The translations under genes were made by a program, and so were the position numbers. A stretch of DNA of 64,000 nt, taken from sequence record SRR31156797_2189; one strand, 5' to 3'. Positions 320-60,280 of the stretch are shown here, piece after piece. The notes under the pieces were generated by a model. That model saw nothing but the letters and a program-made list of their open reading frames with translations, searched no databases and was not told the origin of the DNA. Each line of letters starts with the position of its first letter. Position 1 is the first letter of the stretch.

Positions 320-1693
320 TTACAATACAAGTTCAAACTTGCTTGGACTATCATCACGGTCTTTTCTATCCAGCAACGCATCTGTAATTTTTTCTAGTAG
401 ACGCAGGCCGCCCATATAACCGACTGTCGGGAAATGCTGATGTCCCTGACGATCCAAGATAGGGAATCCCCAGCGAACAAACGGTAAGTCTTCATCGCGG
501 GCAATATATTTGCAGTAGGTGTTGCCCATGATGAGATCCACCGGATCATTTTTGATCCACTGGTGGAGCAGAAACATATCGCCCTTGGCTTTGACCTTCA
601 CCTCACAATCCATGTCTGCAGTCAATTCTTTAATCCGCTTTTCAAACTTCTTCCCTGGTGTTCCAGTCACAACGTAGACCGGACACATATCAATAGAAAC
701 AAGAAATTCAGTCATGGCAATCAACTGATCAGGGTCACCAACCAAGGCTACTTTTTTGCCGTAAAGCCATTGGTGCATATCAGAAATAAAATCAACCAGG
801 CGCCCGCGTTCAGCCGCCACTTCATCAGGTACGGTTGTTCCAGCCAAAGTGCGAAGAGCGTCTATAAATCTATCGGTTGCGCTCAAACCAAAAGGCATAT
901 CAAGAACCGAACAAGGCACCTTACATTTGGAATCAAGCAGCCTTGCGCCATCAGCAGAACACCATTCGCCAAGGGCCAGTGTCCCAATAGCCCCGCCACT
1001 TTCTTTAATATCTTCTATAGGCGTACCGGCATCTGGAAACATCGAATATTCGCCCGTCAGAGCGCCGTTGAGAACGCCAGAGGTATCGGGAAACATAGTG
1101 ATATTAATCCCGATGAGCTCAGCGAGCCTTTTGAGCTCAGCCATATCTGAAGGCTCAACCCAGCCTGGAATAATATTTACCTTGCCGTTCTTTTTCTCCT
1201 GCGGCTGGGCAAGAGCAGCCATTGCCTTGACCATGTTGGAAAAACCGGTCACATGCGATCCCACATAACTAGGAGTAGGTGCGCCGAAAACTGTCTTCCC
1301 TTCAGGTATCTTTTTTTCCTTGTTCGCTTTGTGAAAAATCTGCGGTAAATCATCGCCGATTGTTTCAGACAAACAGGTTGTATGAACCGCTATTACTTCA
1401 GGCTCATATACGGTAAATATATTATTAATAGCCTGGATCAGGTTTGCCTGTCCGCCAAACACCGATGCACCCTCGGTAAAGGAGCTGGTGGCAGCCGAGA
1501 TGGGCTCTTTGTAGTGCCTGGTCAACGTACTTCGATGATAAGCACAGCACCCCTGTGAACCGTGACTGTGCGGCAGGCACCCTTTAATGCCAAGCGATGC
1601 ATACATGGCACCAATGGGCTGACAGGTCTTGGCCGGATTAATCATCAAGGCTTTGCGATCAGCAATTTCTTTTGTTGTATGTCGTAGTAACAT
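320..1693 (-). CDS. nifK: Nitrogenase MoFe protein beta chain
   Basis: INPAKTCQPIGA, HGSQGCCAYHR and TTCLSETIGDD P-cluster motifs; follows nifD. Confidence 0.97.
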   Translation of the reverse strand: MLLRHTTKEIADRKALMINPAKTCQPIGAMYASLGIKGCLPHSHGSQGCCAYHRSTLTRHYKEPISAATSSFTEGASVFGGQANLIQAINNIFTVYEPEVIAVHTTCLSETIGDDLPQIFHKANKEKKIPEGKTVFGAPTPSYVGSHVTGFSNMVKAMAALAQPQEKKNGKVNIIPGWVEPSDMAELKRLAELIGINITMFPDTSGVLNGALTGEYSMFPDAGTPIEDIKESGGAIGTLALGEWCSADGARLLDSKCKVPCSVLDMPFGLSATDRFIDALRTLAGTTVPDEVAAERGRLVDFISDMHQWLYGKKVALVGDPDQLIAMTEFLVSIDMCPVYVVTGTPGKKFEKRIKELTADMDCEVKVKAKGDMFLLHQWIKNDPVDLIMGNTYCKYIARDEDLPFVRWGFPILDRQGHQHFPTVGYMGGLRLLEKITDALLDRKDRDDSPSKFELVL

Positions 1694-1718
1694 GATCGTA
1701 CCTTCCTAAAATTCTTTG

Positions 1719-3356
1719 TTATTCCCACACATATGTTGCGGAAAGTTCCGGATTTTCCTGCCAGGGAGCCTTCATGTAGCTCCAGATTTTGCTGTTCACC
1801 AGCCGGTCTATCTCACTATAAAAATTTACCGCTCCAACAAACCCGGCATACGGACCGCCAGAGTCGTAACTGTGCAACTGCTTCATTGGTACGCCCAGCT
1901 TCTGAATAGAATACTTCTCTTTAATTCCAGCACAAAAGAGATCCGGCTTCATCAGCTCAACCAATTTTTCGGCTTCATACTGATTTAAGTCATCAATAAC
2001 CAGAGTGCCCTCACTCATCTGTGGGTTCAAGCCCTCGTACTCTTTAAACTTCAGACCAGCCTTTTCGAGCGCCTCCATTTCTTCCGCTGTCTTCCGCGGG
2101 CTGTACAATTCCGGATCAGCCTCGACCTCAATTTCTTCAATATTTCGACTATCAGCATCAACTTTAAGATTAGGAATCACGTGGCGTCCTTCATAATCAT
2201 CCCGGTGTCCGAACTCATAACCTGCAGAAATGGTTTTCATACCCATTTCTTCAAACAGTTCCTGATAATGATGCGCACGCGAGCCGCCGACAAAAATCAT
2301 CGCTGTTTTACCTTCTGTCCGAGGAAGGACTAACTCCTGTGCGGCTTCAACAGCTGGCATTTCTTCTGCAATTACAGCCTCTACCTTATCGACCAGCTCC
2401 TGGTCGCCAAAGTACTGGGCAATTTTCCGTAGTGATTTTGCAGTTGCCTTTGCCCCGATAAAATTGATTTTAATCCAAGGGATACCGTATTTTGTCTCAA
2501 GCATGTCTGCGACATAGTTAATGGAGCGATGACACATGACACAACTGAGATCTGCCTGGTTAGCCGACGCAAACTGCTCATACGTCGAGTTACCGGAAAA
2601 TGTGGCAATATTGGTGATACCGCACTTCTTAAGGATACGGTCGATCTCAAAACCGTCACCACCGATGTTATATTCACCAAGGAGGTTGATCTTGTATTTA
2701 TCAGTTTTTTCGTTCTCACTTGTCCCAACAAGATGGGTAAATACCTGATTGTTGGCAATATGGTGACCAGCCGACTGGGATACGCCCTTATATCCTTCAC
2801 AACTGAAGGCGAAAACATTACAGTCACCAAACTTCTCTTTCATCTTCTTGGCAACAGCGTGGATATCATCCCCGATCAGGCCCACTGGGCAGGTTGCAAA
2901 AACAGCAATCCCTTTAGGGTGAAAGGTGTCGTATGCTTCCTGAATAGCCGCCTCAAGTTTTTTCTCACCACCGAAGATGATGTCTGAGTCCTGCATATCT
3001 GTGGTAAAAGAATACGGTATATAATTATCTTCTCCTTTTTCACCGGCATCATGTTGATTACGTCGAGTGAGCCAGGCGTAAAAGCTACAGCCCACCGGAC
3101 CATGCACCAGGTTAATAATATCACTGGTCGGCCCCATGATAACGCCTTTACAACCTGCGTAGGTGCAACCACGCATGGTGATAACACCGGGGATTGTTCG
3201 TACATTTGCCGTAATTTCTGGCGTGGTATTTTCGAGGGCCTCATTAATCATTATCTGCTTGGCACGTTTTCGGGCGACCTTAGGCGGATACTTTTCAAGG
3301 AGTTTCCCCTTGATATCATTTGGTTCCCACTGCACCATTTTTTCTGTTTTTCCCAT
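1719..3356 (-). CDS. nifD: Nitrogenase MoFe protein alpha chain (group II, with the C-terminal-half insertion)
   Basis: RGCTYAGC, HGPVGC, TCPVG (P-cluster); VMCHRS and QLHSYD (FeMo-co ligands); 545 aa with the insertion around RNIEEIEVEAD. Confidence 0.97.
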   Translation of the reverse strand: MGKTEKMVQWEPNDIKGKLLEKYPPKVARKRAKQIMINEALENTTPEITANVRTIPGVITMRGCTYAGCKGVIMGPTSDIINLVHGPVGCSFYAWLTRRNQHDAGEKGEDNYIPYSFTTDMQDSDIIFGGEKKLEAAIQEAYDTFHPKGIAVFATCPVGLIGDDIHAVAKKMKEKFGDCNVFAFSCEGYKGVSQSAGHHIANNQVFTHLVGTSENEKTDKYKINLLGEYNIGGDGFEIDRILKKCGITNIATFSGNSTYEQFASANQADLSCVMCHRSINYVADMLETKYGIPWIKINFIGAKATAKSLRKIAQYFGDQELVDKVEAVIAEEMPAVEAAQELVLPRTEGKTAMIFVGGSRAHHYQELFEEMGMKTISAGYEFGHRDDYEGRHVIPNLKVDADSRNIEEIEVEADPELYSPRKTAEEMEALEKAGLKFKEYEGLNPQMSEGTLVIDDLNQYEAEKLVELMKPDLFCAGIKEKYSIQKLGVPMKQLHSYDSGGPYAGFVGAVNFYSEIDRLVNSKIWSYMKAPWQENPELSATYVWE

Positions 3357-3378
3357 AACCTCTGCTCCTTAAAGGAAA

Positions 3379-3753
3379 TTACTGAATCGACTTTGCGCCG
3401 CGCTCGTTAGTCCGAACCCGAACAGCGTCTGGCATGGGGAGGACAAATATTTTGCCGTCACCCGCTTTACCCGTCTGGTTAATGGCTATGATTGCTTCCA
3501 CGATATCATCAACCTTCTCGTCTTCAGCAACGACAGTTACCATTCTCTTGGGATACAGGTTGCCCTTCTCCCCCAGCAGCGCTGCAGCTTCTTCATACCC
3601 TTCTTCAACGCCATCCATCAGCTTGCGATTGACAAACCCAACACCCCTGCCCTGTACTTCGTGGGCAAAAAAGGCGTCCACTCCGGCTTCGGTTAGTGCG
3701 GTTTTGGTTTTGTTCATCATATTCATACGCACAACAGCGATTATTTCTTTCAT
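3379..3753 (-). CDS. nifI2: PII-family nitrogen regulatory protein NifI2
   Basis: MKEIIAVVRMN, GRG, TGKAGDGKIFV PII motifs; second PII gene between nifH and nifD. Confidence 0.9.
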   Translation of the reverse strand: MKEIIAVVRMNMMNKTKTALTEAGVDAFFAHEVQGRGVGFVNRKLMDGVEEGYEEAAALLGEKGNLYPKRMVTVVAEDEKVDDIVEAIIAINQTGKAGDGKIFVLPMPDAVRVRTNERGAKSIQ

Positions 3754-4103
3754 GCGGCCACCTCCTCAGCAGAGGCCCCCTCTTTCACGCCGGAACTGAT
3801 GGTGTACACTTCTTCAACTTCCGATATAAAGATCTTACCGTCACCAAAAGCACCTTTCTTGCTTGATCTGGCAGTATCCATGATGGTATCAACGACAAAT
3901 TCTTTATCTCCTTCCGGCACAACACTAATCAACATTGTTTTTGGGATTTCATCGTAGGTAACTTCACCAATTTTGATACCGCGCTGCTTACCACGCCCTG
4001 CAACGGAATATTTTGTCACTGCTGGAAAGCCTGCGTCCATAAGTGCTGCAAGCACCTCATCAGACTTCTCCGGGCGAACAATTGCTCTAATCATGATCAT
4101 CAT
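3750..4103 (-). CDS. nifI1: PII-family nitrogen regulatory protein NifI1
   Basis: IRAIVRPEK, GRGKQRG, YDEIPK, GAFGDGKIF; first PII gene after nifH. Confidence 0.9.
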   Translation of the reverse strand: MMIMIRAIVRPEKSDEVLAALMDAGFPAVTKYSVAGRGKQRGIKIGEVTYDEIPKTMLISVVPEGDKEFVVDTIMDTARSSKKGAFGDGKIFISEVEEVYTISSGVKEGASAEEVAA

Positions 4104-4130
4104 TGCTTTTCTCCTGTAATATCAATTTTT

Positions 4131-4967
<837 letters not shown>

Positions 4968-5071: not shown

Positions 5072-5089
5072 TAGCAAGGCCTGTGCCAA
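5072..5089 (-). promoter_or_regulatory. Sigma54 (-24/-12) promoter of the nifH operon
   Basis: Minus strand reads TTGGCACAGGCCTTGCTA, matching TGGCAC-N5-TTGC, about 115 bp upstream of the nifH ATG. Confidence 0.88.
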
Positions 5090-5724: not shown

Positions 5725-6576
5725 TTAGAAGTGATACGCTATACCCAGACGCAACGCAACGTTATCCATGGGAAAATGACCTGTTTGTGTTGTATATATT
5801 TCGCCATCTAAAAAACCTGTGTATGTCGCGTCGGCATCAGCCTGGACATATTGCACAGAAAGGTCGAGAGCCCAGTTTTTTGAAAAGAGCCATTTTGCCC
5901 CTACCGTCATCTGCAGACCGACAACACTGTCTACCTCCATGTGATTATAGGCAGTTCCACCGTATTCCGATGAGAGTGTCCATTCAGGGTCGGCATCAAA
6001 CGTGCTAGAGTAAAAACCGATACCGACCCCTGCATACGGGAGGAAATTGGTTGAATTGGTATATTGGGCAAGCAGGGTGATAGTCGGTCCACTTATGATG
6101 ACGTTTCCATCGGTTTTGTCTTGCAGGGTCGACGTGTTGAAGGCTACGGTTTCCGCCTCTATTCGATCATAAGCTAATTCAAAACCAATGTACTTGTTGA
6201 AGTAATAGGAAACGTTAAATAATATCGGCGCAGCATTCTGTTTTTCATCCAGGCCGTAAATAGTCCCCAGATACGTGCCTGAGCCATATACTCCTCCCCG
6301 ACAACCGGAATCATCTTCGGTGAGCCCTCTTATTGCCGAACGAACACCAATCTGCAAATGATCTTTAATATGCTTATTGAAAAAATCACCGGAGGATACA
6401 TTGATGCTCTTTTCTGAGACCTCTGTTATTTCGCCAACGGCAACCTCTGTACTAATTTTTTTTTCAATATCCCCACTGTTGGTGGATATTGTTTTTTGAT
6501 CAGCACCGTATGCAGCAACGGTGGTAAGCAGCACAGCGGCCAGCGCCAAATATATTTGAATAAACTCTCTATTCAT
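5725..6576 (-). CDS. Outer-membrane beta-barrel protein, OmpW-like
   Basis: Signal peptide (MNREFIQIYLALAAVLLTTVAAYGA), alternating beta strands, PYAGVGIG, C-terminal LRLGIAYHF. ATG 6576 preferred over the track start 6621. Confidence 0.75.
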   Translation of the reverse strand: MNREFIQIYLALAAVLLTTVAAYGADQKTISTNSGDIEKKISTEVAVGEITEVSEKSINVSSGDFFNKHIKDHLQIGVRSAIRGLTEDDSGCRGGVYGSGTYLGTIYGLDEKQNAAPILFNVSYYFNKYIGFELAYDRIEAETVAFNTSTLQDKTDGNVIISGPTITLLAQYTNSTNFLPYAGVGIGFYSSTFDADPEWTLSSEYGGTAYNHMEVDSVVGLQMTVGAKWLFSKNWALDLSVQYVQADADATYTGFLDGEIYTTQTGHFPMDNVALRLGIAYHF

Positions 6577-7423
6577 GTTGGGTTCTACGACTCCTTTGCA
6601 AAAGGATATGATCAGGTGCAAAACCTGCGGTATTAAAATGGTAAAATAGACACCCGAGCGTAATCCGAGATTCTACGAGATTATCTGGCGGTTCCGCAGC
6701 AGGATGACCGGTAAATGGCGCAAAAAGCCCCGGCAATTTTCCATTTGTCCATTGTTCTAGAATGCAGCATTTCATGCTTGCCCTGTGGTTTGAGGTTAAG
6801 GTTACAATACGCTTCCCACTCTTTATGAGAGGAGTAAGAAAAGGGAAAGTACCAAAGAACAACCAGATCTCTTGTTTCACTTGTGATACATCAACAAGAT
6901 TAAATAAATGATGAATGTGGTAGAAAGATGAAGGAAATATGAATAAACAGAGGGCGCAGATGCTCCACCCGGCCCGGCAAAAAAGCACTCTTCCTCAGCA
7001 CCTAGTGGCATTTTGTTATCGTTTTACTCGCAGATTCGATCTACACCAGTTAACACCCAGGTTTTCTAGAATTGCACTCAGGACCCTGCCATTCTCAAAT
7101 GAATTGATAAAAGTGGCTGAGCTTTGTTAGTTTCAAAAAACAGTAGGTGCCCTCTATGAACCGTGTAGGTTAGTTTGTCCAAAACGCATCTGTTATCGAT
7201 AGAATTTTAAAAAAGCTTGGAAGAGCCTGCAAAAAGAGATAGGTTGTTCAGCGATTTGCTGAAAGAGAAAGTGTTGCGGAAAAGCAAACCAAGACTTCAG
7301 CTCCAATCACATTGCATGTCTGGAACACATCTCCATAACATTGGTCACATACGCAGTTACTCGTAGTACCGTTGGAATCCGCTTCTAGGCTTAATATTTC
7401 CCCCAAATTCCTAGGAGAAAACA

Positions 7424-8755
7424 ATGGCGCAAGAAATTCGACTGCTCAAATTACAAAACCTTTCCTCTGATGCGCGCAAAAAGTTATTGCTGCGTACAGA
7501 AAGCGACCTCGGGCAGTACCTTGAAACTGCACAAACAATTATCAAGGCTGTCCAAGAGGAAGGCGATAAGGCATTAGTGCGCTTTGGCCGTGATTTTGAC
7601 AAAGCTCCAATTGAATTGGGCGCCATCAAAGTTACAGATGAAGAATTTGCCCGTGCTGATGCTGCAGTTTCTAAAGAGCTGGTGGAGGCAATACGATTTG
7701 CCACTGAAAGTATCCGCATCTTTCATCAACAGCAGATGCCGGAACCGATGCGAATGGAGGAGATTCGGCCGGGAGTGTTTTGCGGTGAGAAGTATGCGCC
7801 AATCCCATCAGTCGCCTGCTACGTTCCCAGAGGTAAGGGATCGTTTCCCAGCGTATTAATGATGACGGCTGTTCCTGCTGTTGTTGCTGGTGTGGCAAAA
7901 GTTTGTGTACTTACCCCGGCAGGGCCTGATGGTCGGGTTGATGATGCGACTCTCTTTGCAGCTCAAGAGGTTGGGGTAAGCGAGGTATACAAATGCGGTG
8001 GTGCCCAAGCTGTCGCTGCAGTTGCTTATGGCACCGAAACAATCCCCAAAGTCGATAAGATTGTTGGCCCGGGGAGTCCCTGGGTCGTAGCAGCTAAACA
8101 GTTGCTTGCAGACATCATAGACCCCGGTACACCCGCAGGCCCAAGCGAATCAATTGTTTTTGCAGACAGTTCAGCAGATGGGGCATTAGCCGCTCTGGAC
8201 CTGATCATTGAGTCGGAACATGGCCCAGACTCTTCTGCTTACCTCGTCACAGATAGTGAGCAGGTAGCCCAAGCTGCACTGGAAGCAATTCCAAAATACT
8301 GGGAGCAGCTGGGTGAGAGCAGAAGATCTTTTTCCGAAACCGTGCTGTGTGGTGAACGCGGTGGTATTATCATTGCGGATGGCACCCGTGGCTGCATCGA
8401 TTTCATTAACGATTACGCGCCCGAGCACCTGATGATCCATAGCAGTGAACCTTTTGCTCATCTTGGCGCCATAACCAATGCCGGCGAAATTTTGCTCGGC
8501 GAGCACACCCCTATTTCACTGGGTAATTATGTGCTGGGTCCCAATGCAGTACTGCCGACTTCCGGTGCCGCCAAACTCCACTCTCCCCTTGGAGTATATG
8601 ATTACCTTAAGGCAACGGGTATCGGTTACGTAACTTCAAACGCATATCCTATCTTGGCCAGGCACACCCATGCCCTTGCCGTTTACGAAGGATTTGACGG
8701 CCATGCCCTTGCAGTTTCAGAGCTGCGAGATAAACTCCAGGGACAAAAGGGATAA
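7424..8755 (+). CDS. Histidinol dehydrogenase (HisD) family paralogue with altered active-site residues
   Basis: YVPRG, GGAQAVAAVAYGTETIPKVDKIVGPG, PAGPSE, APEHL, EGFDGH; deviates from canonical HisD at ESEH, LGNY and GPNAVLPT. RBS AGGAG present. Confidence 0.88.
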   Translation: MAQEIRLLKLQNLSSDARKKLLLRTESDLGQYLETAQTIIKAVQEEGDKALVRFGRDFDKAPIELGAIKVTDEEFARADAAVSKELVEAIRFATESIRIFHQQQMPEPMRMEEIRPGVFCGEKYAPIPSVACYVPRGKGSFPSVLMMTAVPAVVAGVAKVCVLTPAGPDGRVDDATLFAAQEVGVSEVYKCGGAQAVAAVAYGTETIPKVDKIVGPGSPWVVAAKQLLADIIDPGTPAGPSESIVFADSSADGALAALDLIIESEHGPDSSAYLVTDSEQVAQAALEAIPKYWEQLGESRRSFSETVLCGERGGIIIADGTRGCIDFINDYAPEHLMIHSSEPFAHLGAITNAGEILLGEHTPISLGNYVLGPNAVLPTSGAAKLHSPLGVYDYLKATGIGYVTSNAYPILARHTHALAVYEGFDGHALAVSELRDKLQGQKG

Positions 8756-8760
8756 ATACA

Positions 8761-9552
8761 ATGAACGGTGATCAAGCGACACCTCTGATTGCTCCAGGAT
8801 TTGGCCTTTTAGAAAAAAAGGCCTTGGTAACTGGTGCTTCAAGAGGAATCGGCAGAGCACTTGCTATTGGACTGGCTCAGGCCGGCGCAGAGGTTGTTCT
8901 TGCTGGTAGAGATACGCAAAGCCTCTCCAATGTTGCGGCGGAGATCAGCGGTGATTTTACTCGACCGACAGTACTGACCTTGGATGTGACCGATGTCGAG
9001 GATCTGCAACGCACAGTTGAAACCTGCTGCAGGAAGATCGGCGGCCTTGATATCCTTGTTAATAATGCAGGCTTTGAGCAGGTGGAAAATTCTCTGGAGC
9101 TTACTCCGTCAACCTGGGATGCCATCCTTAACACCAATCTGAAAGGTGCTTTTTTCATGGCACAGGCTGCGGCCAAGATTATGCTTGAGGGCGATGGTGG
9201 AAGTATTGTTAATGTCTGCTCTCTCGCTTCCAGTGTTGGTATCCCCACGGCAGTACCATATACAAGCTCCAAGAGCGGATTGCTTGGAATGACCCGGGCC
9301 CTGTCATCCGAGTGGGCACCTCAAGGCATCCGCGTTAACGGTATTGCTCCCGGATATTTTAGAACGGCAATGACCGATGTCTTTTTCCAGGATAAAGAAT
9401 GGGCAGAGGCTATGCTTGCTAAAATTCCTGTGGGAAGATTTGGTCGAGTGGAAGACCTCATAGGTGCAGTGATCTTTTTCTCCAGCCCAGCCGCAGAATA
9501 CATAACAGGACAGATGTTAACCATTGATGGTGGTTACCTGGCCTCTATTTAA
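8761..9552 (+). CDS. Short-chain dehydrogenase/reductase (gluconate-5-DH/KduD-like)
   Basis: TGASRGIG, NNAG, catalytic S...YTSSK, IAPGYFRT, IDGG. Confidence 0.92.
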   Translation: MNGDQATPLIAPGFGLLEKKALVTGASRGIGRALAIGLAQAGAEVVLAGRDTQSLSNVAAEISGDFTRPTVLTLDVTDVEDLQRTVETCCRKIGGLDILVNNAGFEQVENSLELTPSTWDAILNTNLKGAFFMAQAAAKIMLEGDGGSIVNVCSLASSVGIPTAVPYTSSKSGLLGMTRALSSEWAPQGIRVNGIAPGYFRTAMTDVFFQDKEWAEAMLAKIPVGRFGRVEDLIGAVIFFSSPAAEYITGQMLTIDGGYLASI

Positions 9553-9730
9553 GGACACCTTGAAAGTTGCTTTTTCGTCTCCTTTCGGCGTTGTGCTCAA
9601 AATTTTATCCTTGGAGGTAAGCGAGAACTCCGATATCAACCATATGCCTGTGATAAAATTTATCGCACTCCTCGGAGTTTTCGCTGACCTGACCCTGATC
9701 GAAAATTCTACTCTTTCAAGGCACCCTTAA
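9549..9730. mobile_element. MITE/REP-like palindromic element, copy A
   Basis: Imperfect terminal inverted repeats TTAAGGACACCTTGAAA / TTTCAAGGCACCCTTAA; internal inverted pair AGGTAAGCGAGAACTCCG / CGGAGTTTTCGCTGACCT; core shared with 12060-12217. Confidence 0.65.
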
Positions 9731-9744
9731 CCTAATATTTATTA

Positions 9745-10869
9745 ATGACGGAATCCGTGACACAAACCCCACCCCTTGTCGAATTAAACAACGTAACCAA
9801 ACAGTTTGGCAAAGTTACCGCTGTAGACAATGCAAATTTTACCTTGTCCCAAGGATCGGTTTTGACCATACTCGGGCCCAGCGGTTGCGGCAAAACCACT
9901 TTACTGAGAATGATCGCCGGTTTTGAATCGCCAACTACCGGTGATATTCGTATAAATGGTCAGCCAGTACAAACCGTCCCGCCGTATAAAAGGTCCATAG
10001 GCATGGTGTTTCAAAATCTTGCTCTTTTTCCACACATGAGCGCAGGAGAAAACATTGCATATCCTTTAAAAATGCGCCGGTTTCCCCCTCAGGATATTCC
10101 TGAGCTTGTTGAGCGTTACCTCGGGATTGTCCGTTTGTCTGGTATGGGTGAGAGGAAAATTCACCAGTTATCAGGAGGTCAGCAACAGCGAGTTGCCATT
10201 GCCCGAGCCCTGTCGTTTAATCCGGATTTACTGCTGCTTGATGAACCTCTATCAGCACTGGATAAAAAACTGCGCGAAGAGATGCAGCTTGAGTTCAGGC
10301 GGATTCAGCAGCAGCTCGGTGTAACCACCATCAATGTCACCCATGATCAGCGGGAGGCCCTGGTCATGTCTGATGAGATTATCGTCATGTCTGAAGGCGC
10401 CATTCAGCAGACAGCCGATCCTGTTTCTCTGTATCGACAACCAAGTAATCGGTTCGTTGCCTCATTTATTGGGTTAACCTCTCTTATCAGAGGAACGGTA
10501 GAAAAAAATGCAGAAGGCAAGGTTACCTTCCGTACGGGTGATATATCTCTTGAGGGCCAGGCAAGTGAACGTTTTCGATTTGGTGAAACCGTTGAAGGAG
10601 CCATACGCGCAGAACAAGTCCGTATCAGTAAAGGTATTGAGGGGGCTGAGGGGATGGATAACGTGCTTGATGGCGTTGTGGAACAACAGATTTTTGAAGG
10701 AGACCGGATGGTCTACCAGATTTCATGTTCTTCACTTGGCACAACTCCCCTGTACGTGTTTGATCATGACCCGAGCCATCATGTGCTCCATGCACATGGC
10801 GAGAAAGTAGTTGTGAGCTGGAAAGTGAGGGATCTATTAGTGTACCCATGCCAAAAATATCGCGTTTAA
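9745..10869 (+). CDS. ABC transporter ATP-binding protein (PotA-like, TOBE domain)
   Basis: GPSGCGKT, LSGGQQQRVAIARAL, LLLLDEPLSALD, VTHDQREAL. Confidence 0.93.
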   Translation: MTESVTQTPPLVELNNVTKQFGKVTAVDNANFTLSQGSVLTILGPSGCGKTTLLRMIAGFESPTTGDIRINGQPVQTVPPYKRSIGMVFQNLALFPHMSAGENIAYPLKMRRFPPQDIPELVERYLGIVRLSGMGERKIHQLSGGQQQRVAIARALSFNPDLLLLDEPLSALDKKLREEMQLEFRRIQQQLGVTTINVTHDQREALVMSDEIIVMSEGAIQQTADPVSLYRQPSNRFVASFIGLTSLIRGTVEKNAEGKVTFRTGDISLEGQASERFRFGETVEGAIRAEQVRISKGIEGAEGMDNVLDGVVEQQIFEGDRMVYQISCSSLGTTPLYVFDHDPSHHVLHAHGEKVVVSWKVRDLLVYPCQKYRV

Positions 10870-10902
10870 CACTTTGAACCACAGAACCCGAGGAGGAATT
10901 GC

Positions 10903-12006
10903 ATGAAGAACAAGCCGCAAAATAGCCTGACTCTTGACAGGCGGGACTTTTTGAAAACATCGGCCGTCGTTGCCGGTAGTGTCATGCTGGGGCCGTCCAT
11001 AGCCTTTGCTGAACAGAAAAAACCTAAGGAAATCATTGTTCGTGCCTGGGGAGGGTCTTGGGGAGAGGCACTCAAAGCAGGTGTAGCTGATGGATTTACT
11101 CAAGCAACGGGCATCAAGGTGCGCCTTGACTTTACAGAAGATAATGAAATCAAGCCCAAGATATGGGCAGCGGTTGATCAAGGCCGGATACCACCAATTC
11201 ACGTAAACTGGGATACTACTACTAACGCCACTATTTCCGCTTTGCGCGGCGTAACAGTAGACCTGAGCGACCTGAGCAACCTGAAAGGGCTGCTCCCTCT
11301 AGCCAAACCGGTTGGCCTGGAAGGGTATCCTCTGGTCAACACCTACGCCTATGTCTATGTTTGTGCTTACCGCCCGGAAGCCTTTCCTGGTGGTCCCCCT
11401 GAATCATGGAATGTACTGCTCGATCCTAAGTTCAAAGGAAGAGTTGCTCTTTATGATGACGGAATCGGTTTTAACCCGATAGCAGTTATAGCAGGCGGTG
11501 GGAGTGCTAAAGATATCCCGGGCAATATGGAACCAGGTTATGAATTTTACAAAAAATTGAAGGCAAATAAGCCGTTACTGGGAGAAGATTCGGATTTCAC
11601 CACCTGGTTTCAGAAAGGAGAAATCGATCTTGCCTGTACAATCAGCGTGAATGCACGTGCCGCTAAGCAAAGCGGTATTGATGTAGCATGGACTGTTCCC
11701 AAAGAAGGGTGCAAAGTGGATACAGATGGCTTGTGGGTACCTAAAGGGCTGCCCGCCAATGAGGAGTACTGGGCCAAGGAGTTTGTTAACTTTGCACTGA
11801 CTCAAGAAGCTCAAAAAGAATGGTGTTCCCTGTTAGGCCTGCCTCCTGTCTACCCAGGAATCGAGCCTCCTGCTGATCTGGTTGGAGATGTTTCTTACCC
11901 TACTAAACCTGAGGATTTTTCAAAACTGGTGCGCATACCTTCCAAGGTGTTGGTTGAAAACCAGCCTAAATGGTTTGCGAAGTTCAATGAAATTTTTCAG
12001 GGTTGA
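10903..12006 (+). CDS. ABC substrate-binding protein (PotD/PotF-like) with Tat signal
   Basis: DRRDFLK twin-arginine signal ending in AFA; WGGSWG, PESWNVLLDPKFKGRV, PKEG motifs. Confidence 0.88.
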   Translation: MKNKPQNSLTLDRRDFLKTSAVVAGSVMLGPSIAFAEQKKPKEIIVRAWGGSWGEALKAGVADGFTQATGIKVRLDFTEDNEIKPKIWAAVDQGRIPPIHVNWDTTTNATISALRGVTVDLSDLSNLKGLLPLAKPVGLEGYPLVNTYAYVYVCAYRPEAFPGGPPESWNVLLDPKFKGRVALYDDGIGFNPIAVIAGGGSAKDIPGNMEPGYEFYKKLKANKPLLGEDSDFTTWFQKGEIDLACTISVNARAAKQSGIDVAWTVPKEGCKVDTDGLWVPKGLPANEEYWAKEFVNFALTQEAQKEWCSLLGLPPVYPGIEPPADLVGDVSYPTKPEDFSKLVRIPSKVLVENQPKWFAKFNEIFQG

Positions 12007-12028
12007 TTAAGTCTGGTTAGTTGTTTTT

Positions 12029-12057
12029 GCCCGCTGCATGTTATTGCAGCGGGCTTT
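12029..12057 (+). terminator. Stem-loop after the SBP gene (partial terminator/stabiliser)
   Basis: GCCCGCTGCA-tgttat-TGCAGCGGGC followed by TTT. Confidence 0.6.
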
Positions 12058-12059
12058 AC

Positions 12060-12217
12060 GAGCCTGTTGGTTTACTTTCTTTTCGTCCAATCTCTTCGTT
12101 ATGCTGAAAAAACAATCCTCGGAGCTCAGCGAAGACTCCGATATCAAATATATGTCTGTGGTTATTTTTCCATCATACCCTGACCTTGAACGAGAATCCG
12201 CGTAAACGAACAGACTC
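12060..12217. mobile_element. MITE/REP-like palindromic element, copy B
   Basis: Terminal inverted repeats GAGCCTGTTGGTTTAC / GTAAACGAACAGACTC; core ATCCTCGGAGCTCAGCGAAGACTCCGATATCAAATATATGTCTGTG is similar to copy A. Confidence 0.62.
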
Positions 12218-12241
12218 TTTTATGTTTTCACAGGTATTTCT

Positions 12242-13192
12242 TTGGCTTCTGTAAATTCTTCTTCACAGTTACCCCTCAGGTGGCGTCTATTTGATATCGC
12301 AGAGCGCATAGCAGCTGCACTCTGGCCAAAAACAATGCACAAGTATAGCGGCTACCTGCTTCTGGTACCGGCAATTCTGCTTGTGTTTGTTCTGGTGCTA
12401 GGCCTGATCTACATTGGCGGCTACAGTCTGCACGAACTGGACCTTGCAACGTACCGGCTAAAGGAGGCATTCAGCCTAAGCAACTACAGTACTGCTATAT
12501 CCAGCACCACATACAAGTCCGTGGTTTTAAGATCAATTGGTGCATCGATGCTGGTGACCTTTTTCACGCTGCTGCTTGCATTTCCCTATGCTTACCTCAT
12601 GGTTCGGGCCAGGCGGGCTGCAACGAGAAAATTTTTACTGATTAGTCTTTTCCTCCCGTTTTTTATAGGTCAGATTGTCCGTGCCTATGGCTGGCTGATT
12701 ATCCTTGGACATGAAGGATTAATAAACACCGTCTTTACCGAACTTGGTTTGCCGGCTATGGATCTTATTTATAACTATCCAGCCGTGATCCTCGGCTTAG
12801 TGCAATATATGCTGCCTTTTGCAGTGCTCCTGCTAGCACCAGCGATTACAGCCATTAGCCACGATGTGGAACTGGCCTCTGAAAGCCTTGGGGCAAACTG
12901 GCTGAGAACGTTCATCCACGTGGTTCTCCCCATGGCAAAACCAGGACTGGTCGGTTCCTCTGTGGTGGTGTTCACACTCACCTTAACAGACTTTGCCATG
13001 CCGGAAATTCTAGGCGGCGGCACGACTGATTTTATTGCCAATGCCATTTATGATGGTTTTTTTCAGCTCTCTAACTCTGGCTTGGGGTCTGCACTAGCCA
13101 TGATTCTCGTAACCCTGGGAACGGCTTTTGTTGTGATCCTTTTTTTCATCGCCGGCACCGGGACGCTTGGTTTTAATGGGAGGGAGCAATGA
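12242..13192 (+). CDS. ABC transporter permease (PotB-like)
   Basis: Multiple TM helices, VRAYGW, EAA-like loop ELASESLGA, PEILGG. Confidence 0.9.
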   Translation: MASVNSSSQLPLRWRLFDIAERIAAALWPKTMHKYSGYLLLVPAILLVFVLVLGLIYIGGYSLHELDLATYRLKEAFSLSNYSTAISSTTYKSVVLRSIGASMLVTFFTLLLAFPYAYLMVRARRAATRKFLLISLFLPFFIGQIVRAYGWLIILGHEGLINTVFTELGLPAMDLIYNYPAVILGLVQYMLPFAVLLLAPAITAISHDVELASESLGANWLRTFIHVVLPMAKPGLVGSSVVVFTLTLTDFAMPEILGGGTTDFIANAIYDGFFQLSNSGLGSALAMILVTLGTAFVVILFFIAGTGTLGFNGREQ

Positions 13193-13989
13193 TTGGTTCT
13201 CGGAGCAAGGCATTGGTGTTGTGGACAATTGTTGGATTCGACTTGCTACTTTTGAGCCTGCCAACCCTGATCATCATAGGTGCTTCTTTTACTTCAGGTG
13301 ATATTGTCCAATTCCCGCCGGAGGGCTTCTCCCTGAAATGGTATAGTAAGCTCTGGCTGCTAGACGATTTTAAGTCGGCCTTTTGGAGAACCCTGTACGT
13401 CTCTATTATTTGTACATTGGTGAGTATACCAGCTGGGACTTTGGCGGCCATTGGACTGGCAAGGTATCGAATTCGGTTTCATACAACCATACAGGTCTAC
13501 CTGCTGCTTCCATTTACCATTCCACTGGTGGTATCCGGCTTGGGCATGATGATCTTTTTCGGTGAGATTCGGATCCTGGGTCAGCTGTGGCCGGTGGGAC
13601 TGGGCCTTTGTATTATCAATCTCCCTTTTATGATCTGGGCGGTGAGTGCAGCCGTAAATGGGCTGGATGACCAACTGGAAAATGCTGCAGCAAACTGTGG
13701 AGCGCCCCCCCTACAGGTTTTTCTAACTGTTACCCTCCCTGGAGTTATGCCAGGTGTTATCACCGGGGCACTGCTTATGTTTATCCTGGCCTTTAATGAA
13801 TTTCTGGTCAGCCTTTTTCTTACGGACGCCCGGACTGTTACCCTGCCAGTATCTATTTATAACTCTATCCGCAGTGTTATCACACCCGACCTGGCAGCTG
13901 TTTCAGTTGTTTATATTGCCATAGCCTTTATTGCAGTTTTGCTGTTGGACAAATTGGTTGGGCTGGAGTTATTTCTGAAATCAAAATAG
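13189..13989 (+). CDS. ABC transporter permease (PotC-like)
   Basis: FPPEGFSLKWY, LENAAANCGA EAA loop, FNEF, TLPV. Confidence 0.9.
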   Translation: MIGSRSKALVLWTIVGFDLLLLSLPTLIIIGASFTSGDIVQFPPEGFSLKWYSKLWLLDDFKSAFWRTLYVSIICTLVSIPAGTLAAIGLARYRIRFHTTIQVYLLLPFTIPLVVSGLGMMIFFGEIRILGQLWPVGLGLCIINLPFMIWAVSAAVNGLDDQLENAAANCGAPPLQVFLTVTLPGVMPGVITGALLMFILAFNEFLVSLFLTDARTVTLPVSIYNSIRSVITPDLAAVSVVYIAIAFIAVLLLDKLVGLELFLKSK

Positions 13990-13992
13990 GTT

Positions 13993-15249
13993 ATGCAAAA
14001 TATGAATCATATTGAGCTGCAGTTTGGACAGGTAACCAGCAAATATATAAATACCCCAAATGATTTTATAAGCCACATGCTTGAACATATTGCATGGCGT
14101 ATGGGATGCAGCATTCATCTGGAGTGGAACAACGAAAAATGGCAGGAATTGGGACAAGCCCTGGCACAAGAGATAATAAAGCTTGTTCCATTGCATCGAG
14201 AAGCCGCGACTCTGGGCATGATTGATGATGGAAGTGCTGAGGTGGGGGTAGAGCTTGATGTAACAGCAGGGCTTAGCCTGGAAACAGCAGCAGTTATTGA
14301 CATGGACTATTTCCTTTCCCTGCGCTGTGAGCAGCTTACCTCAGGACACCCCCTCGTGAAGGTCTTGCAAGGGATTGCTCAAGGCCTTGACGCCCGCATT
14401 TCGATTCTAGTGGGCAGTCTCAGCGATCCGCATCATACGTGGGAGGGAATCTTCCGAGGGCTTGGAACTGCACTGAGTCAACTCTATGCTCCTCCTGTAG
14501 AAAAGGCAGCGTTTTCTACAACCATACATGAAGGTCTGCAGTCTGAAGGGGTGCAGCTTATTCGGAGTTCATGCCAGGGTGCGGAGATAGAGCGCGAGAC
14601 TGCAGAAACTAAATTGCTGGTATCTGTTGATTATAACGCACGACCTAATGCTTCATTCTCCTACAAGGGTGCTCCTATTAAGCATTACGATGCCGCCGCC
14701 CTTGATGGACTACATGATCTATTGGAACGTATTGCAATTGAATGCGGCTTTCATCTCAGCCTTATATTCACAGCCAAGGCATTGAGCTCAAGCCATGTGT
14801 TGCTTGAAGATACCGGCATGGTGCTAGGTAGGGTTCTACGAGAGATTTTGGTACAACGAATGATGGACCAAGGAATTAATGGTGCGGGTTCTTCTTTAAA
14901 CGTACCGTCTGACATCCGGCAGCAAGCTATTTCCGTTGGTATCAGCGTTGAGGGACGAAAATCCTGTCTCTTTATCCCCTTTACGACTGACCGGGGGCAA
15001 TTGTATAAGAATTTTATTCTGGGGCACACTGTTTTTGGTGGCTTGTATTCCGAGGATCTGGATGACTTTTTCGATGGTTTTTCCTGGGGATTGGGTTGCT
15101 CGATCATGATTCATTGTAAAGAAACATTGGGACCAGAGGCCGCCTGGGGGATGATTTTCACACATTTTGGCAATGCCTTACGCGAAGTATTACGACCGAA
15201 TCCTAGCCGGAGAGGGGTTCCACCGGGGGTAAAGGCAAATCTTTATTAA
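13993..15249 (+). CDS. Tandem-duplicated imidazoleglycerol-phosphate dehydratase (HisB/IGPD)-like protein
   Basis: Half 1: FISHMLEH, MIDDG, SDPHHTWEGIFRGLG. Half 2: ERETAET, SSHVLLEDTGMVLG, EGRK, DFFDGF, MIH, FGNALRE, GVPPGVK. About twice the length of HisB. Confidence 0.78.
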   Translation: MQNMNHIELQFGQVTSKYINTPNDFISHMLEHIAWRMGCSIHLEWNNEKWQELGQALAQEIIKLVPLHREAATLGMIDDGSAEVGVELDVTAGLSLETAAVIDMDYFLSLRCEQLTSGHPLVKVLQGIAQGLDARISILVGSLSDPHHTWEGIFRGLGTALSQLYAPPVEKAAFSTTIHEGLQSEGVQLIRSSCQGAEIERETAETKLLVSVDYNARPNASFSYKGAPIKHYDAAALDGLHDLLERIAIECGFHLSLIFTAKALSSSHVLLEDTGMVLGRVLREILVQRMMDQGINGAGSSLNVPSDIRQQAISVGISVEGRKSCLFIPFTTDRGQLYKNFILGHTVFGGLYSEDLDDFFDGFSWGLGCSIMIHCKETLGPEAAWGMIFTHFGNALREVLRPNPSRRGVPPGVKANLY

Positions 15250-15760: not shown

Positions 15761-16251
15761 GGGATAGACTTTGACTACTTAGATCCTCTTCACGAACTTG
15801 GCAAGGTCGGTATTCCAGATTCTATTTTGCTGAAACCTGGCAAACTGACACCAGATGAATTCAAGGTTATGAAAACCCATGCATCTCTAGGGGCTAAAAC
15901 GCTGGAGTTGGTCTATGACCAATACCCCAACAGTACCTTTTTAAAAATGGGCATTGAGATAGCAAAATATCATCATGAAAAATGGAATGGCGCCGGATAT
16001 CCTTACTGTCTGGCGGGAGAGGCCATTCCTTTAAGTGCACGAAAATGTCACTGGTCGATGTCTATGATGGCTTACGAGCACGCAGACCGTACAAAGAGCC
16101 TTTTGATCATGAAAAGCGTAAGAATATTATTGTTAGCGAAAGTGACACAAACTTTGATCCCGAACTGATTAAAATTTTTCTGAAAATTCATACACACTTT
16201 GATGCGACAGTGACCTCATGGACAGCCAAGGAACAATTGGAATCGAGGTAA
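15761..16251 (+). pseudogene. HD-GYP c-di-GMP phosphodiesterase remnant (5' truncated, frameshifted)
   Basis: PLHELGKVGIPDSILLKPGKLT...HHEKWNGAGYP...LSAR, then a frame change near 16042 into SLVDVYDGLRARRPYK...FDP. In-frame TAA at 15758 with no upstream domain; HD reads HE. Confidence 0.82.
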
Positions 16252-16365
16252 CTCTTCAACGAGCATACGGAACTAACCAGCCGCTTGTTGATCTGGTTTA
16301 CCCCTTTGCTGCAAATACTCCTTAATAGGCCCGCAAAACTAAGAACGGAATAATTGGCGATAAAA

Positions 16366-17437
16366 ATGCAAACCACTGATCAGGATCCAGCGGCATTAAG
16401 TAGTGATCGAATCCTTCAACTCGAAAAGAAAAAACGTGTTTTCTTAATTTACGTTCTGAGTTTGATAGGCTCAGCAGTGTGCCTAATATTTGGGATTCAT
16501 AATTTAAGTGAGGGGCTGAATATCGTTGGTGTTACAGTGATTTCGATAGCAATATTAGCCTGTACGCCTGTACAAATCTTGCCTATTTTTTTTTACAGTG
16601 GCAATGCTGATTTTGCTGTTACTATCATGGGTGTCGTGCTTCTGGCACTAGGAGGATTTCTTTTAGTAAGTGGTGGATACTTCAACACTGGAATACTTTG
16701 GATATATCCACTGATAGCTATAGCAATTTTCACCAATAACTTTCGAACAGGACTCATCTATTCTTGTTTTTTTGTCACACCCTGCACATTATTACTTTTT
16801 ATTCCAGATAATCCACTCATGTTTGCAGCATATTCACTGACGGTAAAAATACGTTTTTTGGTAACTCTTACCGTCCTACTGATTTTATGCTTAACTGCAG
16901 AGTATTCAAATGAACACTTACGAAGGCAGGTACTAAGACTTCATAACCAACTTGTGTTGGCTGCTAATACTGATAGCTTAACACAGCTGCCTAACAGGAG
17001 ATATATATTCGATTTTTTTCGTTAATGACGAAATTCAAGGTCACACGGAAAATCATGCTGTCCTGTTATGCGATATAGATACCTTTAAGGACATCAATGA
17101 CTCATTAGGCCATGACGCAGGTGATAAAGTTCTACAGGAAGTAGCTTTTCGCCTGCGTCAATCTATCCGCAGCAGTGATGTCATAGCACGTTGGGGCGGG
17201 GAAGAATTTTTGGTATTACTACCAGACACTTCACCTGCCATTTCTCTTCAACGTGCTGATAAAATAAGAAAATCAATAGGCGATGCACCTATCAATCTAG
17301 ATGGGAAAGACTATAGAATTACTGTTAGTATCGGCGTTTCTTCCACAAACGGTAACCGAAGCGCACGTGCCATTTTGAAAAAGGCTGACGAAAAATTATA
17401 CCTCGCCAAAACTCAAGGGAGAAACCGTGTCTGCTAG
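16366..17437 (+). pseudogene. Membrane-anchored diguanylate cyclase split by one extra base in a T7 run
   Basis: TM region ending TDSLTQLPNRR, stop at 17025. Removing one T from 17013-17019 gives ...LLCDIDTFKDINDSLGHDAGD...RSSD...RWGGEEF...GRNRVC. Confidence 0.85.
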
Positions 17438-37800: not shown

Positions 37801-37825
37801 TAAGTAAAGTTTTTAAGGTCGGCAT
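34808..37825 (-). CDS. murE-murF: Fused MurE-MurF ligase
   Basis: N-half: GTNGKTT, MEVSSH, DYAHTPD, GCGGDRD, DNPR, AGKGHE. C-half: [40 protein letters not shown]. Single 1005-aa frame. Confidence 0.95.
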
Positions 37826-54051: not shown

Positions 54052-54218
54052 ACCACAATCCATTATTTTTTGGGCAAAACGCCATTGTTCTTTCTATTAA
54101 CAGCGCGCTATACTAGCATATTGGTTAACCGGTGCAATGGATATGGAATACTTTTTTTTGCCACGCACCTTTTTTCACCACACTTACTTACTCACAGTTT
54201 CTCCAAAATCTAAGACCT

Positions 54219-57162: not shown

Positions 57163-57210
57163 ACAATTTGCCGACTGCCAAGTTTCTTACTCTGTCCATT
57201 TATCGCCATG

Positions 57211-59466: not shown

Positions 59467-59549
59467 ATAACAGCCCCTTTCACAACTCCACCTCTTATAA
59501 CCGGAAACACAGCCTCTTTTAACAACCTGCGACAAACTGACGTTCTCTA

Positions 59550-60278: not shown

Positions 60279-60280
60279 TG

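Follow-up and report, generated by a model that had tools for sequence, protein, structure and literature searches.

The locus considered here raises the question of why two relatives of histidine-biosynthesis enzymes should be encoded together with a complete importer. It lies in sequence record SRR31156797_2189, of which a stretch of 64,000 nucleotides (hereafter the window) was analysed, and consists of seven open reading frames (ORFs) on the plus strand spanning positions 7424–15249. An earlier note had described seven co-oriented genes encoding a HisD-family enzyme, a short-chain dehydrogenase/reductase (SDR), a full PotABCD-like ATP-binding cassette (ABC) importer whose binding protein is exported by the twin-arginine translocation (Tat) route, and a double HisB, and Pfam and NCBIfam searches confirmed this description. 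Its statement that no other his gene is nearby also held, none being found among the window ORFs of at least 100 aa scanned with Pfam across the 64 kb.

The reading favoured here, which is given a probability of roughly 45%, is that the seven genes form one operon that would import a small nitrogen-containing alcohol and convert it, most likely to histidine. Most probably the substrate is a C3 compound that carries an imidazole, akin to histidinol or imidazole glycerol. The Tat-exported binding protein would capture this ligand and the ABC system would import it. The product of the last gene, a tandem imidazoleglycerol-phosphate dehydratase (IGPD), would then carry out a metal- and imidazole-dependent dehydration of a vicinal diol at one composite site formed from both of its domains, the SDR would adjust a secondary alcohol or ketone, and the HisD-family enzyme, a variant termed HisD*, would perform the final four-electron oxidation of a primary alcohol (histidinol to histidine). 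HisD* would also serve de novo histidine synthesis in lineages without an ordinary hisD, and the stand-alone tandem IGPD would have been recruited from the Desulfobacterales version of a HAD-fused family that acts as the sole HisB in many bacteria. We infer the ligand, the order of these steps and the metal site. Histidine salvage is favoured because both enzymes are variants of histidine-pathway enzymes, because the linkage to the importer extends across phyla, and because imidazole-related partners recur around the same importer (HisC- and HutC-type in alphaproteobacteria, IGPD in deltaproteobacteria).

Predicted structure and putative active site of the tandem IGPD

In the 418-aa product of the last gene, PF00475 (54.6 bits, cut-off 27) picks out two weak IGPD stretches. 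The AlphaFold2 model, for which 75 homologues were supplied, has a predicted local distance difference test score of 93.8 and a predicted template modelling score of 0.93, and its top Foldseek matches are IGPDs only. With VIA-align, residues 3–168 of the model align to the Staphylococcus aureus IGPD 2ae8_F (Z 20.6, root-mean-square deviation 2.2, 157 aligned) and residues 193–418 to the Arabidopsis thaliana IGPD2 4mu4 (Z 20.8, root-mean-square deviation 2.9, 193 aligned). Profile-profile alignment to single-domain IGPDs gave probabilities of 99.7 (N domain) and 99.9 (C domain). The double HisB of the earlier note is thus borne out at the level of the predicted fold, both domains reaching Z of about 20.6–20.8 to solved IGPDs, and the fold of the A. 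thaliana (4MU4) and Mycobacterium tuberculosis (4GQU) enzymes appears twice over in one chain.

Unlike those enzymes, each domain carries only half of the motifs. The motif (D/N)xHHxxE, which belongs to both halves of each IGPD unit, is not found in this way here: the N domain retains the second motif only (DPHHTWE) and the C domain only a first motif with a single His (SSHVLLED), so that the losses are reciprocal. The protein thereby breaks the rule of a 2020 survey, in which all 535 IGPDs examined are said to have HHXXE in each half (PMC7284861), and it does not reach the NCBIfam HisB equivalog (best model NF002111, 45.6 bits against a cut-off of 231).

The active site of the A. thaliana IGPD, as described in PMC4509728, comprises Mn1 ligands H47, H169, E173 and H74', Mn2 ligands H73, E77, H145 and H170, phosphate binders Q51, H55, K177, R99, R121, S199 and K201, and the catalytic residues E21 and E173. 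In the window protein the N domain provides the equivalents of H47 (H28), Q51 (H32), H55 (R36), H169 and H170 (H147 and H148), E173 (E151) and K177 (R155), and the C domain those of E21 (E205), H73 (H268), E77 (E272), R99 (R322) and K201 (K414). The equivalents of Mn ligands H47, H169, H170, E173, H73 and E77, of catalytic E21 and of the phosphate binders are conserved as in IGPD, whereas Val (V269) stands at the H74 equivalent and Asp (about D358) at that of H145. Among 80 tandem IGPD sequences the kept mapped residues are all at least 97% conserved; some 70 positions reach this level, including every mapped metal, catalytic and phosphate residue. Because each domain retains what the other lacks of the catalytic motifs, the alignment implies a composite binuclear active site, putatively one in each chain, at which Mn1 would be short of one protein ligand.

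Distribution of the tandem IGPD

The tandem HisB is not peculiar to this operon, as the database searches showed. A word-index search returned 490 homologues, many of about 640 aa with an N-terminal HAD-IA domain, and a profile search of 1.84 billion representatives gave 317 matches with about 25 full-length cluster representatives. With one genome taken per species, tandem IGPD loci were confirmed at 292 of 356 candidate stretches, and the best 80 loci were kept for the locus counts. The genome counts include two unpublished genomes (G046 and G048).

Of the 45 genomes that lack the seven-gene cluster, 44 have the tandem IGPD as their sole PF00475 match; with the unpublished pair excluded, the figure is 42 of 43. 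The exception is G044, in which the match lies near a contig start (C539); a further genome, G052, has one weak PF00475 match of 22 bits in a 237-aa frame. Three closed genomes belong to the sole-IGPD set, namely those of Thiohalocapsa PB-PSB1, an Actinoplanes sp. and Ca. Electronema halotolerans. The partners of the gene in these non-cluster genomes are a HisC-like transaminase, HisD* or hisS. The HAD-fused tandem gene is followed by a transaminase gene and, after a break, HisD* in Thiohalocapsa; it lies between HisD* and a transaminase gene in Magnetococcales, precedes HisD* and hisS in a Desulfobacterales genome, and precedes HisD* in Thioploca. The order in Actinoplanes is dnaE, then after a break an ordinary hisD, the HAD-fused tandem IGPD, a transaminase gene and HisD*, with hisA and hisF about 5 kb further. 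The transaminases at these his-type loci have hisC as their best family at 259–270 bits, just under the cut-off of 276.55. From this context, and from the absence of other candidates, the tandem IGPD and HisD* are very probably working histidine enzymes in the his-type genomes. The row of ordinary hisD, HAD-fused tandem IGPD, hisC-like transaminase and HisD* was observed at 7813–13639 of locus L065 (Actinoplanes sp. HUAS TT8), and the closed genome of this strain has no ordinary IGPD.

The longer relatives resemble the bifunctional HisB of Escherichia coli in that most of them (about 640 aa) join an N-terminal HAD phosphatase to the dehydratase and are found beside hisC and hisD. However, their HAD part is of the HAD-IA/beta-phosphoglucomutase type and their dehydratase part is doubled, the window copy has no HAD domain at all, and the bifunctional model NF003937 scores the window protein at 44.6 bits against a cut-off of 443.

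Eleven single-domain proteins of about 205–232 aa from the profile search (P0200–P0227) carry all of the tandem-specific motifs in one domain: HMLExIAWR, xHVIxED (with a single His), GVNGAGS, SFEGR, DPHHxWEAxFRAFG and NPxRxGxxxGxKGTL. They come from records of Peregrinibacteria, NC10, Acetivibrio sp. MSJd-27, Chloroflexaceae and Hadarchaeum. Because these proteins hold all the motifs of the tandem form, such a single-domain protein (IGPD*) is likely, as judged from the motifs, to represent the ancestral type, from which the tandem form would have arisen by duplication and complementary motif loss.

Proteins of the tandem family are named 'hypothetical protein' or 'HAD-IA family hydrolase' in public records and IGPD or HAD hydrolase by JGI. 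No publication on a tandem or doubled IGPD was found in the literature searched, which comprised main texts, and no mention of hisB function was found in the genome papers of the large-bacteria taxa concerned.

Recurrence of the seven-gene cluster

A HisD-family match is present at 58 of the 80 tandem IGPD loci, and the full seven-gene set was recovered with the window proteins by tblastn at 10 of them (L001–L009 and L067), labelled Desulfobulbaceae, Desulfocapsaceae, Desulfobacterales, Desulfosarcina or 'Deltaproteobacteria'. The neighbourhood survey proposed in the earlier note thus finds the genes together in other genomes. Two gene orders occur, the SDR gene lying 3' of the tandem IGPD gene in L005, L007, L008 and L009 and after HisD* elsewhere; in both orders, and in every full cluster, the IGPD gene stands directly 3' of the second permease gene with a gap of 3–12 nt. 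The flanking genes vary among the seven of these ten loci whose flanks were scanned. Across the clusters the binding protein has the highest identity (80–95%), followed by HisD* (70–92%), with the tandem IGPD lowest (51–82%). A binding-protein orthologue (E ≤ 1e-60) was found, apart from G001, in none of 400 sampled genomes of the phylum and none of 400 of the order; the importer module without the tandem IGPD was therefore not found in Desulfobacterota.

All ten cluster-bearing genomes (G001 and G006–G014) also have an ordinary IGPD of 199–222 bits. It had been asked whether canonical hisD and hisB exist elsewhere in the genome, and in the nearest relative, Desulfogranum marinum, both do (ordinary hisD 545 bits, hisB 222 bits). 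The proximity to nif, which had seemed suggestive, does not recur: among the relatives, only the closest (L001) has NifH within 10 kb, and a functional link to nif was dropped.

These data also bear on the idea that the tandem IGPD of the operon is an inactive, structural or regulatory remnant, which is judged extremely unlikely. Decay would fit the fastest-evolving product of the operon, the loss of half of the canonical motifs from each domain and an ordinary IGPD in every cluster-bearing genome. However, the losses are complementary between the domains and not random, the roughly 70 highly conserved positions take in all mapped metal, catalytic and phosphate residues, and the gene is retained in all ten clusters.

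The HisD-family dehydrogenase

The product of the first gene scores above both PF00815 (446.5 bits, cut-off 27) and TIGR00069 (436.7 bits, cut-off 243.8), and it matches E. coli HisD (1K75) over its full length at 252 bits. In the alignment to 1K75 the catalytic E326 and H327 are retained (PEHL being present in all 58 sequences compared), as are the Zn ligands H262 and H419 and residue E414. Three positions differ, with Q259 replaced by Glu, D360 by Asn and H367 by Ala (E263, N368 and A375 in window numbering). The first two affect the axial and equatorial metal ligands in a charge-conserving swap, so that the ligand set Gln259, His262, Asp360 and His419', given for E. coli, Medicago and HpsN structures in PMC11382572, is only partly present. 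The substrate loop reads G-K-G-S-F with an Arg before it (R136-G-K138-G-S-F) in place of the G-S-A-P-L of E. coli. This signature, E/N/A at E. coli positions 259/360/367 together with the loop R(S)-G-K-G-S-F, is present in the window copy and, among the 55 full-length HisD genes of tandem IGPD loci, in 48; these 48 are 44–92% identical to the window HisD, and four of them have Ser for the loop Arg.

HpsN, from the hps/cuy sulfonate clusters, offers a precedent for a repurposed HisD: this member of the family is encoded alongside SDRs and a transporter that takes up an alcohol (PMC11382572, PMC12814064). However, true HisD (252 bits) is a closer match for the window enzyme than HpsN 8v35 (171) or the (R)-2,3-dihydroxypropane-1-sulfonate (DHPS) dehydrogenase 8wwe (200). 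According to PMC11382572, HpsN has the Gln and Asp ligands that are changed here, its D352A mutant is inactive, and the final His (His126) of its loop motif G-R-Y-A/S-H binds Zn or sulfonate; the window enzyme has G-K-G-S-F at this loop and lacks a motif ending in that His. Because of the ligand changes and this loop, the window HisD matches neither ordinary HisD nor HpsN. The HpsN/cysteinolate pathway was considered for it and ruled out by loop motif and by score.

The altered active site noticed earlier is real as far as the substitutions go, as the 1K75 alignment confirms, and does not show repurposing, because the signature is family-wide and the variant is often the sole HisD-family gene. 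With matches counted at E ≤ 1e-20, 38 his-operon-type genomes carry HisD* (44–50% identical to that of the window), which is the sole HisD-family match in 35 of them; the exceptions are G004 and G047 (Micromonosporaceae, with an ordinary hisD too) and G044 (a fragment). Among the cluster-bearing genomes HisD* is the only HisD-family gene in six of ten (G007, G009 and G011–G014), while an ordinary hisD is present in G001, G006 and G010, and G008 has two more distant paralogues. Absent bins are unlikely to account for the result in all six, since the nine cluster-bearing metagenome-assembled genomes (MAGs) all yielded hisG, a hisA/hisF match (at least two in eight) and an ordinary IGPD.

An alternative reading is catabolic: a non-imidazole amino alcohol or polyol (such as serinol, an aminopropanediol, or an analogue with a sulfonate or phosphonate group) would supply nitrogen or carbon, with HisD* as a general 2-amino-/2-hydroxy-alcohol dehydrogenase like HpsN, which is described as acting on DHPS and L-cysteinolate (PMC11382572, PMC12814064). 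This is considered unlikely. In the six genomes where it is the only HisD-family gene HisD* would have to handle histidinol, the HpsN motif is missing from the window enzyme, and IGPD chemistry, according to PMC4509728, relies on an imidazole bridging two metals, the ligands of which are conserved here.

Two further groups of HisD proteins were observed. The extra paralogues of G008 and G010 (the genomes of L004 and L006), 29–31% identical to the window's and scoring 418–426 bits on TIGR00069, may be HpsN-like. A third type of HisD, with Q259 replaced by Arg and Asp360 and His367 kept (31–36% identical to the window's), is the sole HisD-family match in each of seven genomes, where it sits directly upstream of a stand-alone tandem IGPD (L020, L035, L049, L053, L055, L076 and L078). 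The MAG labels of this type are candidate phyla radiation (CPR)/Patescibacteria, Peregrinibacteria, Bdellovibrionales and Woesearchaeota, some of which may reflect binning.

The importer and the SDR

The importer is complete, with PF00005, two PF00528 proteins and PF13416 each above cut-off. The binding protein scores 128.6 bits on SBP_bac_8, and its Tat signal (DRRDFLK, followed by a hydrophobic stretch and AFA) exceeds the cut-offs of PF10518 (24.1 against 22.7) and TIGR01409 (22.9 against 16.7). All four parts have Pot proteins as their best families, in the same four-component arrangement as PotABCD. However, every Pot equivalog cut-off is missed (PotA 355.8 against 482, PotD 42.5 against 582, PotB 129.5 against 348, PotC 115.8 against 326), so that the transporter is Pot-like in architecture only, and the Tat signal is a further difference from PotABCD. 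In favour of non-imidazole catabolism, the ATPase scores 345 bits on a 2-aminoethylphosphonate model, close to its 356 on PotA, and the nearest solved relatives of the binding protein bind polyamines, agropine and mannopine.

The SDR scores 215.7 bits on adh_short_C2, with 4j2h (288 bits) as its nearest solved structure. It scores below the cut-offs of the KduD/gluconate-5-dehydrogenase equivalogs (KduD 234.9 against 338.85), passing only the broad subfamily NF005559 (229.5 against 215), and has orthologues in all ten clusters and in the alphaproteobacterial clusters.

Alphaproteobacterial counterparts

Clusters of a hisD paralogue with SDR and ABC genes had been said to occur in some alphaproteobacteria. 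They exist, and they are true orthologues, with binding proteins 65–81% and HisD 55–57% identical to those of the window; the binding-protein matches lie on 66 plasmid records, rhizobial megaplasmids among them. By tblastn, six of the window proteins have orthologues in these clusters and the tandem IGPD was not found there. The HisD of the counterpart carries the HisD* signature.

One such cluster is SMa0387–SMa0402 on pSymA of Sinorhizobium meliloti (hisC3, SDR, ABC genes SMa0391–0396, hisD2, a Zn-dehydrogenase and a GntR/HutC regulator), with counterparts in Agrobacterium, Shinella, Rhizobium and Paroceanicella. Its products are close to those of the window (SDR 54–55%, ATPase 59–60%, binding protein 70–81%, permeases 56–74% and HisD* 55–57% identity). 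Unlike the window, clusters of this type have a HisC-type transaminase, a HutC-type repressor, an APH-like kinase, a Zn-dependent dehydrogenase and a flavin mononucleotide (FMN) oxidase, and they have no tandem IGPD. In Rhizobiaceae a divergent hisC-type transaminase gene accompanies the order SDR, ATPase, binding protein, two permeases, hisD, Zn-dependent dehydrogenase, hutC, 'hypothetical' and alpha-hydroxy-acid oxidase; in Paroceanicella the order is pyrroloquinoline quinone (PQQ) dehydrogenase, 'hypothetical', SDR, UTRA regulator, ABC genes and hisD. The 'hypothetical' proteins of the two are 48% identical to each other and share a kinase-like HGDAHNANVW loop. In the alphaproteobacterial plasmid loci L083–L086 this conserved protein (406–431 aa) has only a weak APH match (19.3 bits), and it is always part of the rhizobial cluster.

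The transaminase of the S. meliloti cluster passes a hisC equivalog cut-off (651.8 against 540) and its regulator that of HutC (257.7 against 220). An imidazole-type substrate, as proposed from the window, fits these HisC-type and HutC-type genes, which count against non-imidazole catabolism. On the other side, the kinase-like gene, the Zn-dependent dehydrogenase and the FMN-dependent hydroxy-acid oxidase look catabolic, and the S. meliloti orthologues behave as nitrogen-stress genes. In strain 1021, SMa0387 (hisC3), SMa0391–0396, SMa0398 (hisD2) and SMa0402 were about 10-fold down, with ntrBC, in a tolC mutant, and the transporter is termed 'of unknown function' (PMC2912261). The SMa0392 mRNA is a target of the small RNAs AbcR1/2 (PMC8844928) and SMa0392 is placed among 'possibly polyamine' uptake proteins (PMC3484140); in PMC12542648 the cluster genes are merely listed. 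Nothing on function was found in the main-text literature for the SMa locus tags, hisD2, hisC3 or histidinol utilisation.

Possible origin of the operon

Trees came from quick IQ-TREE runs, midpoint-rooted and with SH-aLRT values as support, and are indicative only. In the HisD tree (60 rows) HisD* forms a clade with support 99, within which the importer-linked copies (11 deltaproteobacterial and 2 alphaproteobacterial) form one clade with support 100, the alphaproteobacterial ones being basal. In the tree of tandem IGPDs (80 rows) the ten cluster copies form one clade (99) placed among HAD-fused copies of Desulfobacterales, with a support of 85 only. Because of these two placements, the operon looks, from the sequences compared, like a mosaic of a HisD*-SDR-importer module found in two phyla and a locally recruited tandem IGPD that would have lost its HAD domain.

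Importer-linked and his-operon HisD* differ by fixed residues at 15 positions, none of them in the metal/catalytic signature, which P373, V376 and S380 flank. That the signature is spared is a further point against non-imidazole catabolism. Between cluster and other tandem IGPDs there are four fixed differences (G226/V, L270/V, W365/G and N416/T).

It might be that the genes share no pathway, HisD* and the tandem IGPD being housekeeping histidine genes merely co-transcribed with an unrelated importer of the polyamine type and an SDR. Elsewhere the two enzyme families do provide the only HisD or HisB, the window tandem IGPD has the same catalytic residues as the his-operon copies, with the four fixed positions just given as the only differences found, and the transporter is PotABCD-like. 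Such an arrangement is nevertheless decidedly unlikely, since the HisD*-SDR-importer linkage is orthologous in two phyla with a HisD* clade of its own, and all seven genes are kept together in two gene orders with the short permease-IGPD gaps noted above. Moreover, the ordinary IGPD found in all ten genomes means that the tandem copy is not needed there for housekeeping, and no other product of the operon is as well conserved as the binding protein.

Evaluation of the proposed salvage pathway

The import-and-convert interpretation of the earlier note is supported in part, by the recurrence of the seven-gene unit, the alphaproteobacterial orthologues and their imidazole-related partners; the signs of repurposing and the nif link were not supported. 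In one form of the scheme put forward there, an imidazole polyol is dehydrated, the ketone reduced and the terminal alcohol oxidised to an acid (e.g., imidazole lactate), which serves as a nitrogen or carbon source and not for histidine salvage. The enzyme set (dehydratase, SDR and four-electron dehydrogenase) fits this chain, and the FMN-dependent 2-hydroxy-acid oxidase and transaminase of Rhizobiaceae could take imidazole lactate to histidine. However, its intermediates are unphosphorylated, yet the tandem IGPD keeps all phosphate-binding residues, and the deltaproteobacterial clusters whose flanks were scanned have no further catabolic gene. It is regarded as quite improbable.

Several points also weigh against histidine salvage itself. 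The cluster has no aminotransferase, kinase or phosphatase; since the phosphate binders of the tandem IGPD are all kept, a phosphorylated substrate is implied by the sequence, and its origin after import by an ABC system is unexplained. The kinase-like gene of the alphaproteobacteria had no homologue in the five cluster-bearing genomes searched with it. All ten genomes have a second, ordinary IGPD, which leaves the need for the tandem copy unexplained, and the usual ligands of PotD/PotF-type binding proteins are polyamines or opines. The counts of genomes with HisD* only are based partly on MAGs of unstated completeness. Ordinary hisD and HisD* coexist in Actinoplanes (in one operon) and Plantactinospora (G047), which hints that the two are not fully equivalent. 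The role given to the SDR is a guess.

In a speculative variant of the pathway, HisD* would act first, oxidising an imidazole triol to its acid, and dehydration of this carboxylate by the tandem IGPD would then give imidazole pyruvate. Equally speculatively, a shorter anionic group would be suited by the bulkier residues that the cluster copies have at three positions (W365, L270 and N416).

A wider proposal is offered tentatively and with considerable reserve. Taken as a whole, it states that the tandem IGPD and HisD* may constitute an alternative module, so far unrecognised, for completing histidine synthesis, replacing the ordinary HisB, which in the window would be wired to an importer for salvage. 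The tandem enzyme would have come from duplication of IGPD* and complementary motif loss, with one composite site per chain. HisB would be replaced in this way in cable bacteria, giant sulfur bacteria, Magnetococcales, purple sulfur bacteria and some actinomycetes, and the window copy would salvage imidazole intermediates released by other cells, a form of cross-feeding in sediments and rhizospheres.

If the tandem IGPD does work as HisB, genome calls of the type 'hisB missing, histidine auxotroph' would be wrong for several groups that are prominent ecologically yet mostly uncultured, including cable bacteria, Thioploca, Thiomargarita, Beggiatoa and Magnetococcales. Herbicides and antibacterials are also directed at IGPD, which serves as a model system for metal-switch catalysis; for such work, a naturally occurring pseudo-heterodimer that has just one composite site and lacks one of the Mn1 ligands would be a useful comparator. 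The operon and its counterpart in the genetically tractable S. meliloti define an import pathway conserved across two phyla, which could reveal salvage or cross-feeding of histidine intermediates.

Features of the locus and its surroundings

The genes of the operon and associated signals are listed in Table 1; the gaps between successive genes are 5, 192, 33, 235, −4 and 3 nt.

Table 1. Positions of the operon genes and associated signals in the window.
Feature	Position	Strand	Basis or remark
AGGAG ribosome-binding site	7413..7417	+	6 nt 5' of the ATG of the first gene; read directly
HisD-family NAD-dependent dehydrogenase, variant HisD*, 443 aa	7424..8755	+	Pfam/NCBIfam, 1K75 alignment, tree
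Short-chain dehydrogenase/reductase (SDR), 263 aa	8761..9552	+	Pfam/NCBIfam
ABC importer ATPase with TOBE_2 domain, PotA/PhnT2-like, under equivalog cut-offs	9745..10869	+	Pfam/NCBIfam
Periplasmic solute-binding protein, PotD/PotF type (SBP_bac_8), twin-arginine signal DRRDFLK	10903..12006	+	Pfam/NCBIfam, sequence read directly
Hairpin of 10 pairs, then T-rich tail, directly 3' of the binding-protein gene	12047..12079	+	Consensus scan only
ABC permease, PotB-like	12242..13192	+	Pfam/NCBIfam
ABC permease, PotC-like, 4-nt overlap with the PotB-like gene	13189..13989	+	Pfam/NCBIfam
Tandem IGPD (dIGPD), 418 aa, two complete predicted IGPD folds (about 1-168 and 193-418)	13993..15249	+	Pfam, AlphaFold2 model, alignments

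The hairpin within the operon is possibly an attenuator or a stabiliser of the mRNA. A scan of the whole window with Rfam gave no families, and the sequence 5' of the first gene shows no run of His codons. No sigma-54 consensus was found 5' of that gene, and the sigma-70 scan gave fewer matches than in shuffled sequence. A conserved operator 5' of the first gene could not be defined, because the upstream region aligns with the closest relative only. Among sequencing runs, this DNA was located in a single DNA run, possibly its source, and in no listed RNA run.

The single perfect sigma-54 match in the scan belongs to nifH, upstream of which the −24/−12 consensus TGGCACAGGCCTTGC lies at 5074–5088 on the minus strand. 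On the same strand, 320–4958 contains genes resembling nifK and nifD, a pair of P-II genes and nifH. The interval from nifH to the operon has an OmpW/OmpA-like beta-barrel protein (5725–6621, minus strand) and a 139-aa ORF without a family (6569–6988, minus strand); judging from coordinates and ORFs, this 5725–6988 stretch is apparently missing between nifH and the operon in D. marinum. Directly 3' of the operon the G+C content is lower (about 0.40), in a stretch with a short HD_5-domain ORF (15827–16168, plus strand) and a 223-aa ORF without a family match (16354–17025, plus strand).

Further along, the window holds a division and cell wall (dcw) cluster, from mraZ (40996–41484) to ftsZ (25197–26420). 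It contains a 1005-aa protein with two full sets of Mur-ligase domains (34808–37825, minus strand), apparently a fused MurE-MurF. Type II secretion genes, encoding GspF, GspE, a secretin with tetratricopeptide (TPR) repeats, GspC and M- and L-like proteins, occupy 54132–63286.

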